DNA of 23,397 nt from a virus (Duplodnaviria; Heunggongvirae; Uroviricota; Caudoviricetes), in IMG/VR virus record IMGVR_UViG_2645728091_000017, positions 1 to 23,397 of that record; one strand, 5' to 3'. The translations under genes and the position numbers were made by a program. The stretch's first letter is position 1. The number at the start of each line of letters is the position of its first letter. Shown piece by piece: positions 1 through 20,478 of the stretch. The notes beneath the pieces are model-generated. The model was not told the origin of the DNA and made no database searches. It worked only from the letters and a program-made list of their open reading frames with translations.

Positions 1-717
1 ATGCTGATTGTATCTGTTCTCAAATGCGGTAAAGAATTTACCCCCAAACACGCACAATGGCTGCATAGCCAATTTAAAGGCATACCTTCAATTTGCTTAA
101 CTGATGCTGGAAGTATCCCTGGTGTTGAAACCGCACCGTTAATGCATAACCTTCCAGGTTGGTGGTCTAAGATTGAGCTTTTTAATCCAAACCATCCGGT
201 AATAGGTGATAAGGATCTGCTTTATTTTGACGTTGATGTTGTCATAACTGGTGATATCAAAATCTTTGATGCGGCGAAAGAGTTCACTATGCTGCGTGAG
301 TTTAACCACCCTTCCAGGGTTAACTCATCCATTATGTTCATTCCTGCGTCTATCAAACAATATGTTTGGGATGCGTTCTGGACTGACCCCGAAAAAAATA
401 TGCATGAATGCCAAACAGAAGATAAATGGGGTGATCAGGGATTTCTGGGCAGCGTCATGAAACCTGTATTGTGGCAAGATATAATTCCCGGCTCTGTTGT
501 TAGTTACAAATGCCATATAGCCACACGCAAAATGATAGGTTACAACCCTGACTTGGCATCAGATTATGCTACTGGCAAAGTTCCTGATGATGTTTCAGTT
601 GTATGTTTTCACGGTAGTCCTCGCCCATGGCGAACAGGGTTCAGTTGGGTTCCTTCCTTTTCTGTACGCGATACCCTGTATGGTAAATTCAAAAATTTTA
701 AACTCAGTTTGAAGTAA
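1..717 (+). CDS. Hypothetical protein, AT-rich moron; possible DxD-motif glycosyltransferase-like enzyme (speculative). May be 5'-truncated by the window edge
   Basis: 238-codon ORF on the strand opposite the late operon, visibly lower GC than the structural genes, followed by a strong intrinsic terminator. Contains LLYFDVDVVITGD (D-x-D-like). No family recognised with confidence. Confidence 0.35.
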   Translation: MLIVSVLKCGKEFTPKHAQWLHSQFKGIPSICLTDAGSIPGVETAPLMHNLPGWWSKIELFNPNHPVIGDKDLLYFDVDVVITGDIKIFDAAKEFTMLREFNHPSRVNSSIMFIPASIKQYVWDAFWTDPEKNMHECQTEDKWGDQGFLGSVMKPVLWQDIIPGSVVSYKCHIATRKMIGYNPDLASDYATGKVPDDVSVVCFHGSPRPWRTGFSWVPSFSVRDTLYGKFKNFKLSLK

Positions 718-1680: not shown

Positions 1681-3384
1681 TCAGGCAATGATGTTCTGGT
1701 ACTTGCTCCGGGTCTGTCCGGCCTTTGTCGCCGTCTGGGTAAATGCTCCGGCATTGGTTGGCGTACCAACACTGGGGTGCGAATGGCTTGCGCACTGCTG
1801 CGCCAGTTCTGCCAGTAAATCAATGGTGTCCAACATCATGGTCAGCGTGTTTATACTCTCACTGCCGATATGGACGGTTGGCCCCATAATCTGCTGACCG
1901 CCCGATGCCACCGATTTGCGTAATGCAGCAATCTTTTCAGTCAGGGTTCCCCCCACATCAACATCTACGGCTCCCGCCACATTAGTGGACTGTTTCCCGA
2001 TTATCTCAGTTTCATCATTCCCTTCAATACTGGCCAGCCTGTTACCTTTCACCGCCTGGCTATAGTCACCAGCACTTACCTGCTGGATGGCTCCGGCCAG
2101 CAGTGTGGCGGTTCCCAGTACCGTGGTTTTATCCGTGGCTTTCACCGTGGTTTCACGGCTGACCAGTTCGCGCTGTTCCGTATCGGCTTTTACGGTTCGC
2201 GCCATCGATGTTTCACTGATGGTCTGATCGGTCTGCCTTACCCAGTCACCCGCCTGAGTCACCCTCTGAGATACTTCTTCCCGCTGCTGCTGTAATTGCT
2301 CACCGGGTTTAACGTCCGGCAGGCTGGTACCATCCGGCAGCGTCTGCCTGATAAAGGGTTTATCCGGTCTGCCCCCCGTGAATGCAACCTCAACCAGCGT
2401 CCCTTCTGGCGGAAACTGAAACATACCCGAATCATTCCCGGCCATCGGTACCGGCAACGGCACCGCTGAATAAACAGGCGTCTGATTGTCCGGGTTTCCG
2501 TCTGCGTCAAGCAGCTGCACGTCCACGGCGTAACGTGGCCGGAAGGGATCGGCAAAGTTACCGCTTTTTACCGGCTCTGAATGCGCCACGACTCTGGTCA
2601 TCTTTGGCAAATGAAGCCCGGATGCCAGTTCCGGGTAATGGCTTTCAATCTGCCGTTGCGCCGGTGTTTTCTGCAAAGGTTTACCCGTTGCGCGGTTTCT
2701 CGGCGTCCATGTGATCGCCATCGTGTCATTCGTCAGGTGAACTTTAGTCACGCGTTCACCGTTCATCTCCACCCCTGGCCGCATAGTCTGGATCACTGGT
2801 AATGTCACAGAGTTACCGCCAGCAGCCCCCTGGCTGAACTCTGACGGGATTTCTACAGGACGACCGGCAAACAATGACTTTTCTGCGCCGCCGACGTAAA
2901 GCGAACCATCAGGCAACTGGTACCAGATGTAATCCTGGATACTGAACGCCCTGCCCAGATTGTTCAGCAACTGATAACCAGTACCGTTATGGGTAAAATG
3001 TGGGATGGGGGTATCGCTGTACTGTGCATCAGGCACACTGACTGTGATCCCGCTGTTTTCTTCCAGCCAGCCCGCAATTTCACGCAAAGTCGGGTGTTGA
3101 AACGAACATGGCCACATCCTCTCAAACACACCTGCCAGCTCACGAATGAACAGACGCTGAAAACCGTTTTCAGCGGGCTGCGATCGCTCCACATACCCCG
3201 TAAACCAGCGCAAAAGCAGATCGGTATACCCCACATCCAGCCGCACCAGTTTTCCGGTGTAATCGGTTGTTGTCTCTGCGGTGATGAAGCCCCGGCCGCA
3301 GCTGTTCAGCTCCAGTACCAGGCTGGCATCCACCAGGTGAACTTCATCCGTTGAAAGATAAAGGCGTTTTACTGGTTTCATCAT
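1681..3384 (-). CDS. Late-operon protein, 567 aa, function unassigned (position suggests a tail or baseplate component, possibly gpD-like hub)
   Basis: Long ORF with high GC; its start overlaps the stop of the upstream gene at 3384. No diagnostic motif recognised; assignment is positional only. Confidence 0.5.
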   Translation of the reverse strand: MMKPVKRLYLSTDEVHLVDASLVLELNSCGRGFITAETTTDYTGKLVRLDVGYTDLLLRWFTGYVERSQPAENGFQRLFIRELAGVFERMWPCSFQHPTLREIAGWLEENSGITVSVPDAQYSDTPIPHFTHNGTGYQLLNNLGRAFSIQDYIWYQLPDGSLYVGGAEKSLFAGRPVEIPSEFSQGAAGGNSVTLPVIQTMRPGVEMNGERVTKVHLTNDTMAITWTPRNRATGKPLQKTPAQRQIESHYPELASGLHLPKMTRVVAHSEPVKSGNFADPFRPRYAVDVQLLDADGNPDNQTPVYSAVPLPVPMAGNDSGMFQFPPEGTLVEVAFTGGRPDKPFIRQTLPDGTSLPDVKPGEQLQQQREEVSQRVTQAGDWVRQTDQTISETSMARTVKADTEQRELVSRETTVKATDKTTVLGTATLLAGAIQQVSAGDYSQAVKGNRLASIEGNDETEIIGKQSTNVAGAVDVDVGGTLTEKIAALRKSVASGGQQIMGPTVHIGSESINTLTMMLDTIDLLAELAQQCASHSHPSVGTPTNAGAFTQTATKAGQTRSKYQNIIA

Positions 3385-3929
3385 TAACCCAAAGCATCAT
3401 TGACGGGCTTCAGCACTTTGCGTTCAAACCACGTCAGTTTTTCTTCATCTTCTCCGGCAGACTGGCCACCGTTCTGTCCCGCACTACCGGCAGTCTGTTT
3501 TTTTGCGGTCGTCTTACCTGTTGCCCTGGCCTCTCGCTTTTCCTGCACGCTGATATGTTCCGCCAGTGTGAATGTCACCAGCCAGGACATTTTCCCGTCC
3601 TGCTGGGGTGCATCCAGCATTCCGCTGAACGTTGCTTCACGAAAGTTAACAGCACGGGCAACTTCATGCGCCACACGGTACTTCTGACGATTACCACTGG
3701 CATCGGTCGCACTGGCCAGCTCAAAAATACGCTTCAGAATTTCAGGCTGTTTAAAAGGTATTTCACCGCTGATCCGCAGTTCCTTTCCCTTTGCTCCCTG
3801 CTCTGATTTTGTTGTGGCGCTGGTCTGGCCGGACTGATCTTTATCCTGAAATTGCTGTGAAACAGTCACCCGCATGTTTTTCAGCTGGATGGCCTCGCCA
3901 TTAAGCGCCAGTGTCGGGATCGAAGTCAT
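3384..3929 (-). CDS. Late-operon protein, 181 aa, function unassigned (possible tail protein)
   Basis: ORF translationally coupled to both neighbours; charged and Gln/Ala-rich C-terminus. Family not recognised. Confidence 0.45.
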   Translation of the reverse strand: MTSIPTLALNGEAIQLKNMRVTVSQQFQDKDQSGQTSATTKSEQGAKGKELRISGEIPFKQPEILKRIFELASATDASGNRQKYRVAHEVARAVNFREATFSGMLDAPQQDGKMSWLVTFTLAEHISVQEKREARATGKTTAKKQTAGSAGQNGGQSAGEDEEKLTWFERKVLKPVNDALG

Positions 3930-4662
3930 GAATCATTCCCTTTATTCCATCAAGATTATCGCCAACCAGCATCATGGCAGCGGTGTAAACGGCAGACTGC
4001 TGCGGAATGTCCTTCATCAGTTCCAGTAACGTGGTGCCGGTATCTCCGCTGGCAGTAAAAACCCACGCTCTGGCACTCTTTCCCTGTAAATCATTCAGGC
4101 CGCTGGCCACATCTCTGATAAGCTGGTCACGCAGCTGCGTGAACTCGCCCAGCTGTTTTTTCAGCCCTTCGATATCAAACCCGGCACACGCCGCCTTTTG
4201 TGCCTGGCTGATTGCCATAGCAGATAAAGCTGCCCTGCTGGTTGGTACAGACAGTGGAATGGACGCAGGTAACGCTGCGGCGGCTTTCGCCGGGATCTGC
4301 ATCTTTTCAATAGCCAGCGCTGCGAAGGATTGCGCCAGCCGTTTTACCTGCGTGAATGCCGGGGCGGGGAAAATCCCGACCAGGTTATTCAAGCTGGCCA
4401 TAAAGTTTTCCTGCGTCTGTCCGGTGACCATCATAATCACCACGTCCGCATTCCCCCCCGTTCCGGCCAAGCGTTCAGCAAGATAGCGAACGGCATTAAC
4501 CGGGCTGAGATATGCCCCGTTCGCAGTCTGCTGTCCCAGCCCATAAATCCACGGATGCGCAGGGACGATCGAACAGTTCAGCGCAGCAACAGAATCCGTG
4601 AAGGCCAGACGTGCTTCACGCCACATTTCCAGGCACCTCCGGCCACACAATTTCCGGTGCAT
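3901..4662 (-). CDS. Late-operon protein, about 240-253 aa, function unassigned
   Basis: ORF immediately downstream of the tail fiber assembly gene in the same operon. True start may be the internal Met of MWREARLAF. Family not recognised. Confidence 0.45.
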   Translation of the reverse strand: MHRKLCGRRCLEMWREARLAFTDSVAALNCSIVPAHPWIYGLGQQTANGAYLSPVNAVRYLAERLAGTGGNADVVIMMVTGQTQENFMASLNNLVGIFPAPAFTQVKRLAQSFAALAIEKMQIPAKAAAALPASIPLSVPTSRAALSAMAISQAQKAACAGFDIEGLKKQLGEFTQLRDQLIRDVASGLNDLQGKSARAWVFTASGDTGTTLLELMKDIPQQSAVYTAAMMLVGDNLDGIKGMIHDFDPDTGA

Positions 4663-5207
4663 CTTCCGGTTGAATACGGTTCAGTAAAACGCGGTATTTT
4701 TTCCATGCGGTAAGCAGCAGTGCTTCTTCTTCGGTCGCCATGTCTAAATCAACGGCATCCTGCAATGTGGCAATGGCGTCACTGGCCTGTTTAAGCAGTC
4801 TTTTCTTTTCGGCATCTGCCTCGCTGACTAATGCAATTCGCATGGCCTCCGCATCATCCACCCACCCACGCCTTACCATTCCATTTTTGCCAGGCATTAG
4901 CCGGTGCTAACGTGGTTGTCCCTTCCGGGTACCCCCCTGGCTCGATGATCACCACTTCATTACCGTTTTCTGTATCAAACACCACCTCACCACGATGATC
5001 CTCACGGGAAATCCATCTTTGCTTCTCTGAATCAAAAATTGCCACAAACCCCGCTTTGATTACCGGTGGTTTTATTGTGGTGCAGTTGACTGGCAGTCCG
5101 GTATGCGCAGGTATAAAAGCATCACCCGAACCAATAAATTCATTCGTGTCTGAACGCAGGTTATAAACAGTAACTGTTTGATCGGTTTCACTCATTTTAA
5201 AAGTCAT
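4616..5207 (-). pseudogene. Tail fiber assembly protein (Tfa/gpG-like) split by a frameshift
   Basis: N-terminal part (4854..5207, MTFKMSETD...QKWNGKAWV) and C-terminal part (4616..4897, ...DDAEAMRIALVSEADAEKKRLL...) lie in different frames and together resemble one Tfa. The junction is in the repeat TGGGTGGGTGG (minus strand, about 4857..4868). Confidence 0.6.
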
Positions 5208-6781
5208 TATGCGAGTCTCACTATGTAGTTAAATGCAATATTCTTAACTGTCGTTTCTGTGTTACCCGACGCGGCGACGCTAATCGTGTGACTATGTGCG
5301 CCAATTGCTACGGTATGAGAGTGAGCGCCAATACCTACGGTGTGATTGTGTGCGCCAATAGCTACGGTGTGCGCATGGTTTCCCGCCGAACTTGTAGTAG
5401 TCGCGCCCTTATCCTGTCTGGGTACACCATAATCCGAACCGCCAGACTGCACACTAACGGCAAACCCGACAGTGTGCGTATGCGCCCCCGTTGTATTTGT
5501 CGTTTTCGTGCCATAGTCAAATGTGCTCGCCGTTTTAGTACCGTAATCAAATGAGGATGTTGATTTCGTCCCCAAATCGGTACTGGATGCACTGGCTGTG
5601 TGTGAGTGGGATTTATTACCATCATCTTCATAGGACAAAACTTCGCGGCCGTCTGGTTTCCCTTTGATTGTCCAGCGGCGCATGTCAGGAATAACACCCG
5701 ACGGATACGCGATGGCCAGTAAAGGATATGCAACCTTATCAAAAGATTGTCCCTGCATAATTGCCCACCCTACAGGCGGGATATTCGTTGGCCACGGAAG
5801 CGGCACACCAACCGGCAGAACATCACTACGACTTAAAACCGCCAGTTCACCCAGTTCCAGACTTTTTCTGGCTTTCGCTTTGTCGTTAACATCAGCAAGG
5901 TTTGCATCCTTACGCAAAAAATCGCTGCTGGCCTGCTGTTCTCCCAGGCTACCTTTTGGCCGTAGATCCGTGATGTTGCCATCCACATCAATGCTGGCCA
6001 CCGCAAACACATAATGCTGAACCCCGTTCTGAACGTAATCAGCAAGATTTGCAGCCACCGTGATTTTGCTCTGCACATTCCAGACACTGGTCAGCGTCCC
6101 TGTCCAGCACACATCCAGCCAGACTTTTACCGGCTTTGTCGTCACCGTAATATTCTGATTCGCAGCCAGTGACGCACGAAGTCCAGCCACATAACCCGTG
6201 CCTTTCGTGACAAAAAACTGATTGCCGGTTTTGGCTACCAGATACCCGTTACCAAAAAACGCAGCCGCACCATAGATATCCATATTTTCAAGGCGCTGGC
6301 GCTCATCCATTCCGGCCATACGCGCGGTGAAATCAATCTGCCAGGTCTCAGCGGGCGTATTAATCCCGGTTTCCGTTTGTGCGCCGTTGTACTCCATCAG
6401 AAACGAGCGGGTCAGCACGTTCCCCTGTTGCCCTTCTTTTGTTTTCAGTTTCTGCTGTGATGGTGCATGGACAATCATTGCCAGCGTACCGCTGGCCTTA
6501 TTGAGCAGACCGATCCAGTTAAAACTGAAATCACCCACATCTGCGCCCAGCACTACGGAATAAACCACCCCGTTTTCATTCACCACACCTGTGCGGGTAA
6601 CAGACTGCCGGTGAACAATCTGTGCTGTCGGGGGCAACGCTTCATTGCGATCAACAGGTGTATCCGGGTTTAAATCCGGCACACTGGCAAAAACAAATTC
6701 GTCCAGTAGTACCGGTTCACCCGTTGCGCCCTGCTGTGCTTTCCAGTTTTCAAACGCCAGTGTGATGGCTGTCTGTGACAT
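5207..6781 (-). CDS. Tail fiber protein (P2 gpH-like N-terminus; C-terminal tip with His-x-His repeats)
   Basis: 524 aa. Position between the baseplate genes and Tfa, with a 1-nt stop/start overlap (TAATG) with Tfa. C-terminus carries DYGTKT(A/T)S(T/S)F repeats and GAHxHTV(A/G)I repeats. Confidence 0.8.
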
Positions 6782-18761: not shown

Positions 18762-20478
18762 ATGGCTAAATACTCAGAAGAACTAAAAGGCGTTGTCCGC
18801 GCACTTTATTTGCGCCGCTATACGCCAAAAGAAATTGCATCAGAACTAAATCTGCCGAATGCGCGGATCGTTTACTACTGGGCTGAGAAATACAGCTGGG
18901 CTGATTTACTCAGTTTTGAAAGCACAGAGGAGGCAATTGAACGTCGCTACCAGCTGCTGGCCAGCCGCGATAATAAAACCGATCTAGACCTCAAAGAAAT
19001 GGACATGCTGATTGCCCACGCCACAAAGCTACGTGCTCAAAGCAATAAGCATAAAGAAAAGATGGCCAGCGGCCAGAGTAACGGGCAGGCAGCTGCGCGC
19101 GACAGCAACAGCGATGAACCGCGCCCCAAACGCAAAAACAGGAAAAACGATATTTCTTCTCTGACTCAGGCGGATTTTGACACCTGGGCGGAAGAACATC
19201 TTTTTGAATACCAGAAACACCTGCGCAGGAACATCGGCCAGCAGGTCAGGAACATCCTTAAAAGCCGCCAGATCGGTGCCACCTGGTACTTTGCATTTGA
19301 AGCCTTTGAAAACGCGGTCATGACAGGCGATCCGCAAATCTTCCTGTCTGCCTCCAAAGTCCAGGCGGAATACTTCCGGTCTTACATCGTCAACATTGCA
19401 GAACAGTATTTTGGCATCACGCTGACCGGCAACCCGATCCGCCTCAGCAACGGCGCTGAACTGCGTTTTCTCTCAACCAACAAAAACACGGCACAGTCCT
19501 ACAGTGGCCACCTGTACTGTGACGAATATTTCTGGGTGCCTAACTTCGCCAGGCTTAACGAAGTGGCCAGCGCAATGGCCACCCATGACAAATGGCGTAC
19601 CACCTACTTTTCAACGCCCTCAGCCAAAACGCACCAGGCTTACCCGTTCTGGACGGGTGAAGAATGGAAACAGGGCAGCAAAAAACGCGCGGCCGCCCAG
19701 TTCCCGTCCTTTGATGAAATGCGTAACGGCGGGCGGCTTCAACCTGGCCAACATCGAGAAGCTGCGCAACCGCTACAACACCGCCACCTTCAACATGCTC
19801 TATATGTGCGTGTTCGTAGACAGCAAGGATTCCGTATTCAGCTTTTCAGACCTGGAAGCCTGCGGCGTGGAGGTGGATACCTGGCAGGATCACAATCCGG
19901 ACGCTGCGCGGCCATTTGGTGACAGGCCAGTATGGGGAGGATTTGACCCGGCACGCAGCGGCGATTTGTCGTGTTTTGTGATTATTGCCCCGCCGATGTA
20001 CGCCGCAGAGAAATTCCGCGTTCTGAAGGTCATTAACTGGAAGGGCATGAACTTCCGCTATCAGGCCAGGCAGATCGAACTCCTGTTTAAAAAATACAAC
20101 TTCACCTATCTGGGAGTGGACGTTACCGGTATTGGCCAGGGTGTTTTTGACAACATCCAGCATTTTGCCATGCGCGTGGCCGTCGCCATTCGTTACGACA
20201 TGAACACAAAAAATCAGCTGGTACTGAAAGCGGCGGACGTGGTGGAAAGTCAGCGTATTGAATGGGACAAGAACCTGAAAGAGATCCCGGCCAGCTTTAT
20301 GGCTGTACGCCGCACCACCACGCAAAGCGGTAACGCCATGACATTTGTCGCTGACCGCAGCCAGGACACTGGCCACGCGGAGGCGTTCTGGGCAATTACC
20401 CACGCCCTGCATAACGAACCACTCAACTACGAAAACAAACCGAAATCCCGCTGGGGTGTAAGGAAAGAGGCTGCATGA
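18762..20478 (+). pseudogene. P: Terminase large (ATPase) subunit, P2 gpP-like, interrupted by a +1 frameshift
   Basis: N-terminal ORF (18762..19922) is terminase-like up to ...SFDEMRNG, then reads a nonsense tail. The downstream ORF (19504..20478) becomes terminase-like from GFNLANIEKLRNRY. Junction is at GGCGGGCGGC (19728..19737); removing one G restores a single reading frame of about 570 aa. Confidence 0.8.

Follow-up and report, generated by a model that had tools for sequence, protein, structure and literature searches.

Predicted T4 gp37-type receptor-binding tip at the end of a P2-like prophage tail fiber

The C-terminal ~200 residues of a tail fiber encoded by a P2-like prophage are very probably a homolog of the T4 gp37 receptor-binding tip, in which a metal-stapled stem would carry a variable receptor knob. 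The gene lies in a viral sequence of 23,397 nucleotides (IMG/VR record IMGVR_UViG_2645728091_000017), the whole stretch of DNA analyzed here and referred to as the window. A preliminary description of the window had assigned to the end of this gene (5207..5620, corresponding to fiber aa 388-524 plus the stop codon) two repeat families, a gp37-like tip with His-x-His (HxH) motifs, and a role in host range. The gene and its parts are as follows.

5207..6781, minus strand: tail fiber gene, 524 aa (open reading frame and translation, Pfam, PHROG tail fiber families)
5612..5818, minus strand: collar domain, first part, aa 322-390 (PF07484 and 2XGF alignment), equivalent to T4 gp37 D10 residues 811-881 by the domain limits in PMC6957217
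5474..5611, minus strand: outgoing stem arm, aa 391-436, consisting of HSH, three D(L/Y)GTK decapeptides and GAHTH
aa 392-394, minus strand: HSH, from the translation
5489..5578, minus strand: the three D(L/Y)GTK decapeptides, aa 402-431, with copies of 10 residues each starting at 402, 412 and 422
aa 432-438, minus strand: GAHTHTV, with histidines 434 and 436
5387..5473, minus strand: hypervariable tip loop, aa 437-465, 29 non-repeat residues, corresponding to ~932-959 of T4, its tip subdomain
5276..5383, minus strand: returning stem arm, aa 467-502, four tandem nonapeptides G(A/N)HxHT(V/I)x(I/V) (27 residues followed by GAHSHTISV), with HxH at 469, 478, 487 and 496
5210..5260, minus strand: C-terminal return into the collar, aa 508-524, closing with a 14-residue end; T4 D10 takes in 1010-1026

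Pfam placed a Phage_tail_fib domain (PF12571) at fiber aa 3-158 (E=3.9e-32) and a Collar domain (PF07484) at aa 325-371 (E=3.9e-9). Homologs of Baseplate_J and Tail_P2_I directly adjoin the gene upstream, the latter with a Pfam score of 19.3 bits that is slightly under the 20.6 cutoff. The fiber thus has the marks of the P2 type, namely the N-terminal PF12571 domain and a gene position after baseplate J and I. It is a mosaic that joins a P2-like N-terminal baseplate-attachment part to a T4 gp37-type C-terminal tip, and the prophage carrying it is a P2-like E. coli prophage (Peduoviridae, ESSI2/Quadragintavirus type).

Both repeat families are present in the translation, D(L/Y)GTK decapeptides followed by GAHxHTV nonapeptides, much as the preliminary description had them; the 29-residue unique loop interrupting the repeats had not been singled out there. 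All 12 histidines of the last 137 fiber residues fall within HxH pairs (n=6). Shuffled controls contained a mean of 0.95 such pairs, and six were reached in 1 of 20,000 shuffles. Tandem Repeats Finder called 3.2 copies of a 27-nt unit at 5286..5371 and left the decapeptide repeats uncalled, their copies being too diverged at the DNA level. In six-frame translation of the window, GAHxH and GNHxH were confined to the fiber and one small ORF considered below, and the six other matches to G.H.H were each isolated singles.

The tip is related in sequence to T4 gp37. A phmmer search of PDB chains matched fiber aa 322-524 with T4 gp37 (2XGF, D10 and D11) at E=1e-69, and the alignment is collinear over ~203 residues (query residues 15-217 versus chain residues 29-242). 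Identity by tblastn was ~56% to T4 gp37 and 71% to gp37 of the Salmonella T-even phage Lv5cm. At the C-terminal end, 13 residues match T4 gp37 exactly and are invariant in 9 of 9 aligned fibers. T4 gp37 contains seven HxH motifs (H883, H915, H929, H966, H980, H989 and H998), six of which align one to one with the fiber: H392/394 and H434/436 pair with T4 H883/885 and H929/931, and the returning-arm motifs at 469, 478, 487 and 496 pair with H966/968, H980/982, H989/991 and H998/1000. The H915 motif (GGH915TH) is missing from the window fiber, which has a third DYGTK decapeptide in its place; this three-decapeptide form is the majority form among homologs. The repeats are kept in homologs: across 50 sequences, none of the six HxH pairs varies, nor do positions D, G, K and F in the decapeptide. 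T4 also shares the Collar, the DLGTK/DYGTK segment, a tip loop of near-equal length (32 versus 34 residues between flanking histidines) and a homologous chaperone gene (gp38) directly downstream, the window copy of which is frameshifted. The proposed gp37-like tip with His-x-His motifs is therefore upheld by direct homology and by the Collar and Phage_fiber (PF03335) matches and, judged from the sequences, the relation is one of homology beyond resemblance.

Differences from T4 are also apparent. The tip loop is unrelated in sequence, the returning arm carries a 5-residue deletion, and the tip is carried by a P2-like N-terminal part of 300 aa, whereas that of T4 sits on a 1026-aa gp37 shaft. 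With one metal site fewer than the seven of T4, and with this shortened returning arm, the stem would differ somewhat from T4 in geometry. An AlphaFold2 monomer model of aa 308-524, built with a 50-sequence alignment, was uninformative (mean pLDDT 55.6, pTM 0.20), a low score being expected of an obligate intertwined trimer.

According to PMC6957217, the collar of T4 gp37 spans residues 811-881 and 1010-1026, the stem 882-931 and 960-1009, and the tip 932-959. That paper and PMC11705849, both citing Bartual 2010, describe seven irons held by HxH motifs and identify H929 and H931 as essential. From homology we infer metal binding and trimer geometry for the fiber tip and, by the same analogy, receptor contact. 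Three chains would exit the globular collar, extend away from it as the D(L/Y)GTK-repeat arm, build a small tip knob from aa 437-465, and come back as the GAHxHTV-repeat arm to finish in the collar. Given the out-and-back chain path in the T4 crystal structure, the two repeat families would make up the antiparallel arms of a single trimeric stem with six strands. With three chains, every HxH motif would supply six imidazoles to a single axial metal ion (iron in T4), yielding six predicted sites per trimer versus seven in T4. Folding would require a Tfa/gp38-type chaperone encoded directly downstream. Since one repeat family corresponds to the outgoing arm of the T4 stem and the other to its returning arm, both appear to be scaffold, rigid and conserved, and a distal variable knob would touch the receptor and set host range. 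The T4 receptor is OmpC and/or LPS.

Comparison with close relatives locates the variation. Four Escherichia phages of the Peduoviridae (ESSI2_ev129, ev239, ev015 and ev040) share the gene order and a 524-aa fiber, already annotated in them as a tail fiber protein. The window fiber is 99% identical to theirs over the N-terminal aa 1-300; in the repeats the figure is 91-100%, and for the last 217 residues taken together it is 81-88%. Over loop aa 437-465, identity falls to 62% with ev129 and ev239 and to 21% with ev015 and ev040; 23 of 29 loop codons differ non-synonymously from ev015. The loop is also a gapped, unalignable block in an alignment of T4, lambda-like and P2-like fibers. Thus, the tip subdomain between the stem arms matches T4 in position and length and is the most variable segment among the relatives. 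The T4 tip subdomain binds LPS and OmpC, as demonstrated experimentally, including by mutagenesis, in PMC6957217. By analogy, loop aa 437-465 is likely the receptor-contact surface and host-range determinant. The earlier assignment of host range to this region holds for the region as a whole and fails for the repeats, which are an invariant scaffold around variation that sits in the loop. The determinant is accordingly narrowed from a 414-bp span to an 87-bp candidate loop at 5387..5473, with flanking repeats as conserved boundaries for recombination and swaps. The practical use of this result lies in annotation and engineering.

The tip module is widespread, with 1601 protein clusters at E<1e-10 and 306 phage records (T-even, lambdoid and P2-like) at a coverage of at least 80%. 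The lambdoid Stf and Tfa of HK629 (Ur-lambda type) share the collar, stem, tip and downstream Tfa at 54-61% identity and differ by extra HxH units, a far longer tip insertion and another N-terminal attachment part. The tip is already known in kind, as is the sharing of this module by T-even, lambdoid and P2-like phages. It adds a further allele to a module already solved in T4 with respect to structure, metal sites, chaperone need and receptor surface.

Whether the window copy still functions depends in part on the gene immediately downstream of the fiber.

4616..5207, minus strand: tfa, tail fiber assembly chaperone, T4 gp38 homolog (DNA alignment, PHROG 105)

DNA alignment with tfa of ev129 revealed a 4-bp GTGG duplication at ~4866..4869 that splits the window gene in two: an N-terminal ORF of 117 aa (4854..5207) and a C-terminal ORF lying out of frame with it (4616..4897). 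Each piece matches PHROG 105, at profile positions 12-126 and 124-204 respectively. The gene is intact in ev129 (195 aa, 98% identical to window tfa) and in the other relatives. In Tfa chaperones the N-terminal domain binds the fiber and the C-terminal helical domain mediates trimerisation (PMC9608196), and it is the latter conserved domain that the duplication parts from the former. In addition, compared with ev129 and with an IMG/VR relative, terL has lost ~59 nt, a deletion that shifts its reading frame. These lesions give considerable weight, a little short of even, to the possibility that the tip is an inactive relic in a defective prophage, where an intact fiber ORF enters no particle and sets no current host range. 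Genome matches point the same way. E. coli H131, the only E. coli genome match aligning in one piece, covers the 1101-bp query with 1097 bp and is thus 4 bp shorter, and all E. coli genome matches listed carry an annotated tail fiber assembly protein. On the other side, the fiber ORF retains its whole length and shows no sign of decay, the tfa and terL lesions could have arisen as errors of assembly or sequencing, and the fiber gene could still be donated to other phages through recombination. Given the two frameshifts, the prophage may be defective and its fiber may never be assembled; the sequence suggests that a working phage is improbable. Inactivity would bear on the state of the window copy, not on the identity of the module as a gp37-type tip.

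In phages of the T2/S16 type, the distal end of the long fiber is likewise followed by a gene named gp38, whose glycine-rich adhesin product stays at the tip (PDB 6F45, PMC9608196). By that precedent the fiber end would be a docking platform only, with an attached downstream protein as the true adhesin setting host range. We regard this arrangement as improbable here. The downstream gene does share PHROG 105 with T-even gp38 proteins, and in Ur-lambda and Mu, Tfa stays on the mature virion and aids receptor recognition (PMC9608196). However, the downstream protein of the window resembles T4 gp38 and lambda Tfa, both chaperones, and aligns over its full extent with T4 gp38 and with Tfa families (ev129 Tfa against T4 gp38: 26% identity, E=1e-19), and a search of it for a glycine-rich adhesin that would cap the fiber returned no adhesin family match. 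Moreover, the fiber retains a full stem, tip and C-terminal end of T4 type, and its close relatives differ chiefly in the fiber loop, tfa being nearly identical between the window and ev129. The idea that the HxH repeats chiefly carry iron as bait for siderophore receptors, a "Ferrojan horse" discussed for HxH-bearing fibers (PMC11705849), is almost certainly incorrect for this fiber, as PMC6957217 has the T4 histidines buried on the axis and required for folding and the receptor-binding residues on the tip rather than the HxH stem, and nothing in the window supports a siderophore-receptor link.

The HxH motif of the fiber tip recurs in one other place in the window.

15750..15998, minus strand: stand-alone ORF of 82 aa composed of 7-aa GAHxHS(V/A/L) units, with 8 HxH and 2 AYNH, between the terminase small subunit gene gpM and the head-tail adaptor gene gpL

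As the preliminary description had noted, this ORF, nearly all GAHxHS(V/A/L), shares its motif with the fiber tip, and both match PF03335 (40.5 bits for the ORF and 24.7 bits for the tip; Pfam gathering threshold 20). Codon usage also differs as reported, with a His CAT:CAC ratio of 18:2 in the small ORF versus 4:8 in the fiber tip; GC3 is 0.35 versus 0.46. The period of the ORF is 7 aa, and not 9. Comparison of 5207..5620 with 15750..15998 at the DNA level, as had been suggested, revealed negligible similarity, the best match being 22 bp at 86%. This match, the different periods (9 versus 7 aa) and the divergent codon use led us to reject a recent duplication between fiber tip and ORF, which appear to be related through the motif only.

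The small ORF is a length-variable accessory gene. Nine alleles of 32-82 aa have common N- and C-terminal ends. Its start lies 6 nt past the gpM stop codon and is accompanied by an AAGGA ribosome-binding site, and synonymous codons are varied at Gly, Ala and Ser, including AGT and TCT serines. GC3 in the neighboring gpM and capsid genes is 0.59-0.60, and the lower value of the small ORF suggests a foreign origin. Relatives with the same fiber and without the small ORF exist, and the slot between gpM and gpL is in some cases empty and in others occupied by an unrelated gene of 63-65 aa. The antisense frames are nearly as open as the sense frame, and an AlphaFold2 model of the 82-aa ORF was uninformative (pLDDT 49, no secondary structure). 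The absent-ORF relatives, the replaceable slot, the open antisense frames and the uninformative model were counted against an essential role.

Searches with the small ORF were largely unproductive. A homolog search recovered one 47-aa fragment only, tblastn against phages recovered ev129 only, and scanning a single genome of each species for the exact pattern gave zero matches. PDB matches were of low complexity only (SF3A2 and, at E=7e-4, the stem of T4 gp37). A known defence gene was rejected on the basis of zero PADLOC or NCBIfam matches. We also rejected a histidine-sensing leader peptide or attenuator: no terminator-like site lies downstream on the minus strand, the z-score of the downstream RNA fold is -0.94, and the same intergenic sequence occurs in relatives lacking the ORF.

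Set against other PF03335 proteins, the 82-aa ORF is the repeat alone, without collar, tip or attachment domain; elsewhere in IMG/VR, 7-aa-period HxH arrays lie within longer ORFs (292-586 aa). We tentatively suggest, as a possibility of rather low probability, that the ORF encodes an expressed accessory protein made of HxH heptads only, a free-standing, length-polymorphic, metal-coordinating mini-stem produced from the late head-gene operon and serving, for example, as a capsid-attached fibril or as a metal buffer or donor in virion assembly. If true, the HxH repeat of tail fibers would here serve on its own, a use apparently undescribed. The small ORF, itself only mildly novel, is the one element of the window that could repay experiment.

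The tail fiber is a 524-aa protein (window 5207..6781, minus strand), and the span 5207..5620 corresponds to its residues 388-524 plus the stop codon. Translation, a histidine count and Tandem Repeats Finder, which detected a 27-nt period at 5286..5371, confirmed the preliminary description of this end as decapeptides followed by HxH nonapeptides.

Elements of the fiber C-terminus (minus strand)
aa 392-394: HSH
aa 402-431: decapeptides (20 + 10 residues)
aa 432-438: GAHTHTV (histidines 434 and 436)
aa 437-465: unique non-repeat stretch
aa 467-502: nonapeptides (27 residues and GAHSHTISV)
after aa 502: C-terminal tail, closing with a 14-residue end sequence

All 12 histidines in the last 137 residues sit in HxH pairs. 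Shuffling predicted 0.95 pairs versus the six observed, a number attained in 1 of 20,000 shuffles. The remaining 387 residues contain three histidines.

The resemblance to T4 gp37 that was initially proposed proved to be true homology. A phmmer search of all PDB chains aligned the fiber collinearly with the T4 gp37 tip (2XGF, E=1e-69) from aa 322 to the final residue. By tblastn, the tip was about 56% identical to T4 and 71% identical to its gp37 counterpart in a Salmonella T-even phage; for lambdoid side tail fibers and a further P2-like fiber the figure was 54-61%. In total, 306 phage records had at least 80% query coverage. Pfam assigned a Phage Tail Collar domain and Phage_fiber repeat to the C-terminal half and a P2-type Phage_tail_fib domain to the N-terminus. 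The tip module matched 1601 clusters in a large protein database (E<1e-10). Collectively, these searches establish homology with T4 gp37 and indicate that the module is very common. The original finding is accurate and its interpretation correct; its object is a known, already annotated and widely distributed module. To this the present analysis adds a map of scaffold versus loop, a predicted count of six metal sites where T4 has seven, the finding that the chaperone and terminase genes are broken, and a stand-alone HxH mini-ORF.

In PMC6957217, the T4 gp37 D10 (collar) domain comprises residues 811-881 and 1010-1026, the stem 882-931 and 960-1009, and the tip 932-959; both this paper and PMC11705849 describe seven irons along the needle. 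T4 HxH motifs start at H883, H915, H929, H966, H980, H989 and H998, and six of the seven align with fiber H392, H434, H469, H478, H487 and H496. Where T4 has a GGH915TH unit, the window fiber has a third DYGTK decapeptide, and its returning arm is 5 residues shorter. This three-decapeptide, six-HxH form is the majority among 50 homologs, in which all HxH histidines and the decapeptide D, G, K and F positions are invariant. By homology with T4, decapeptides would form the outgoing arm and nonapeptides the returning arm of one hairpin per chain. Hairpins from three chains would then build a six-stranded stem held by six axial metal ions.

Escherichia phages ESSI2_ev129, ev239, ev015 and ev040 (Peduoviridae; Quadragintavirus and Evevirus) share 91-93% DNA identity with the window over the fiber region. 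Their fibers are likewise 524 aa, which allowed gap-free comparison.

Amino acid identity of the four ESSI2_ev fibers to the window fiber
aa 1-300: 99%
collar: 87-88%
outgoing arm (aa 391-436): 93-96%
tip loop (aa 437-465): 62% (ev129, ev239); 21% (ev015, ev040)
returning arm (aa 467-502): 91-100%

Variability peaks in the loop, where non-synonymous differences from ev015 affect 23 of 29 codons. The same segment is an unalignable block across T4, lambda-like and P2-like fibers, and corresponds to the T4 gp37 tip subdomain, whose surface residues contact LPS and OmpC as judged by mutagenesis and binding assays (PMC6957217). Given this variation and the match to the T4 receptor-binding tip, the proposal that the region sets host range probably holds for the loop (window 5387..5473), but not for the repeats, which appear to be scaffold and are 91-100% identical. 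Synonymous divergence jumps past about aa 300, suggesting that the C-terminal module is exchanged as a cassette; T-even and lambdoid phages also match at the DNA level, in line with such exchange.

The window represents the late-gene region of a P2-like E. coli prophage. Prophages of this type are rare: among 5426 complete E. coli genomes, about 25-36 contain matches, none identical. Structural genes lie on the minus strand.

Gene content of the window
minus strand, tail side: gp5-like spike, HP1 ORF34-like baseplate protein, tfa, tail fiber, P2 I-like and J-like baseplate proteins, tape measure, sheath, tail terminator
minus strand, head side: adaptor gpL, small terminase gpM, major capsid, scaffold
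plus strand: large terminase and portal

The gene following the fiber encodes Tfa (PHROG 105), a family that includes T4 gp38; the intact 195-aa Tfa of ESSI2_ev129 is 26% identical to gp38 over its whole length (E=1e-19). In the window, tfa (4616..5207, minus strand) is frameshifted by a 4-bp GTGG tandem duplication at about 4866..4869, so that the N-terminal product stops at 117 aa and the C-terminal part lies out of frame. In the single E. coli genome that matches this region in one piece, the match is 4 bp shorter than the window. Chaperones of the Tfa type bind the fiber with their N-terminal domain and drive trimerisation through conserved helices in the C-terminal domain (PMC9608196). 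Because these domains are now in separate frames, the split tfa is probably non-functional. Likewise, terL (18762..20478, plus strand) lacks about 59 nt near 19730 that ev129 and an IMG/VR relative have; this deletion shifts the frame, and the gene consists of two overlapping ORFs of 386 and 324 aa versus 591 aa in ev129. Both lesions suggest a decaying or defective prophage, or assembly errors; despite them, the fiber ORF itself is intact.

Two minus-strand genes (3901..4662 and 3384..3929) separate tfa from the spike gene. One encodes a 253-aa PHROG 1677 protein and the other an HP1 ORF34-type baseplate protein, so the fiber-tfa cassette has baseplate genes on either side. In the P2-like Salmonella phage SEN5 (L016, 1452..2276), a macro-domain protein gene lies between the gp37-type fiber and tfa, seemingly an unusual position for such a gene. 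Just beyond the spike gene, on the opposite strand, a 238-aa ORF (1..717, plus strand) matches a PHROG 1962 glycosyltransferase (moron/host-takeover category) and is a possible cargo gene for surface modification of the seroconversion type.

The 82-aa small ORF (15750..15998, minus strand) opens with MKESHLQ, continues with ten repeats, each about 7 residues long, of which eight are GAHxHS-type and two AYNH, and closes with TFNTEH. It passes the Pfam PF03335 (Phage_fiber) threshold, as does the fiber tip, bearing out the motif said to be common to both. The two have no meaningful shared DNA and, as described, differ in codon usage, with CAT encoding 18 of 20 histidines in the small ORF versus 4 of 12 in the tip. 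GC3 is 0.35 versus 0.59-0.60 in the nearby gpM and capsid genes. The ORF starts 6 nt past the gpM stop and is preceded by an AAGGA ribosome-binding site. Phage ev129, four E. coli genomes, three IMG/VR contigs and the window together supply nine alleles, which share identical ends and measure 32, 32, 53, 53, 61, 68, 78, 78 and 82 residues. Gly, Ala and Ser positions use varied synonymous codons (AGT and TCT among them), which speaks for selection acting on the protein, although antisense frames are nearly as open. Roles as an attenuator or a known defence gene were tested and not supported. In other relatives the gpM-gpL slot is vacant or holds an unrelated 63-65-aa protein (PHROG 8618, labelled 'L33'). 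The junction (window 15703..16004; L002 1149..1346; L033 852..1043; L008 453..548) is a three-state cargo slot: empty, PHROG 8618 or HxH ORF. Prophages lacking the HxH ORF carry the same fiber; thus, the ORF is accessory and the fiber does not require it. Elsewhere in IMG/VR, HxH arrays of 7-aa period occur only within open reading frames of 292-586 aa.
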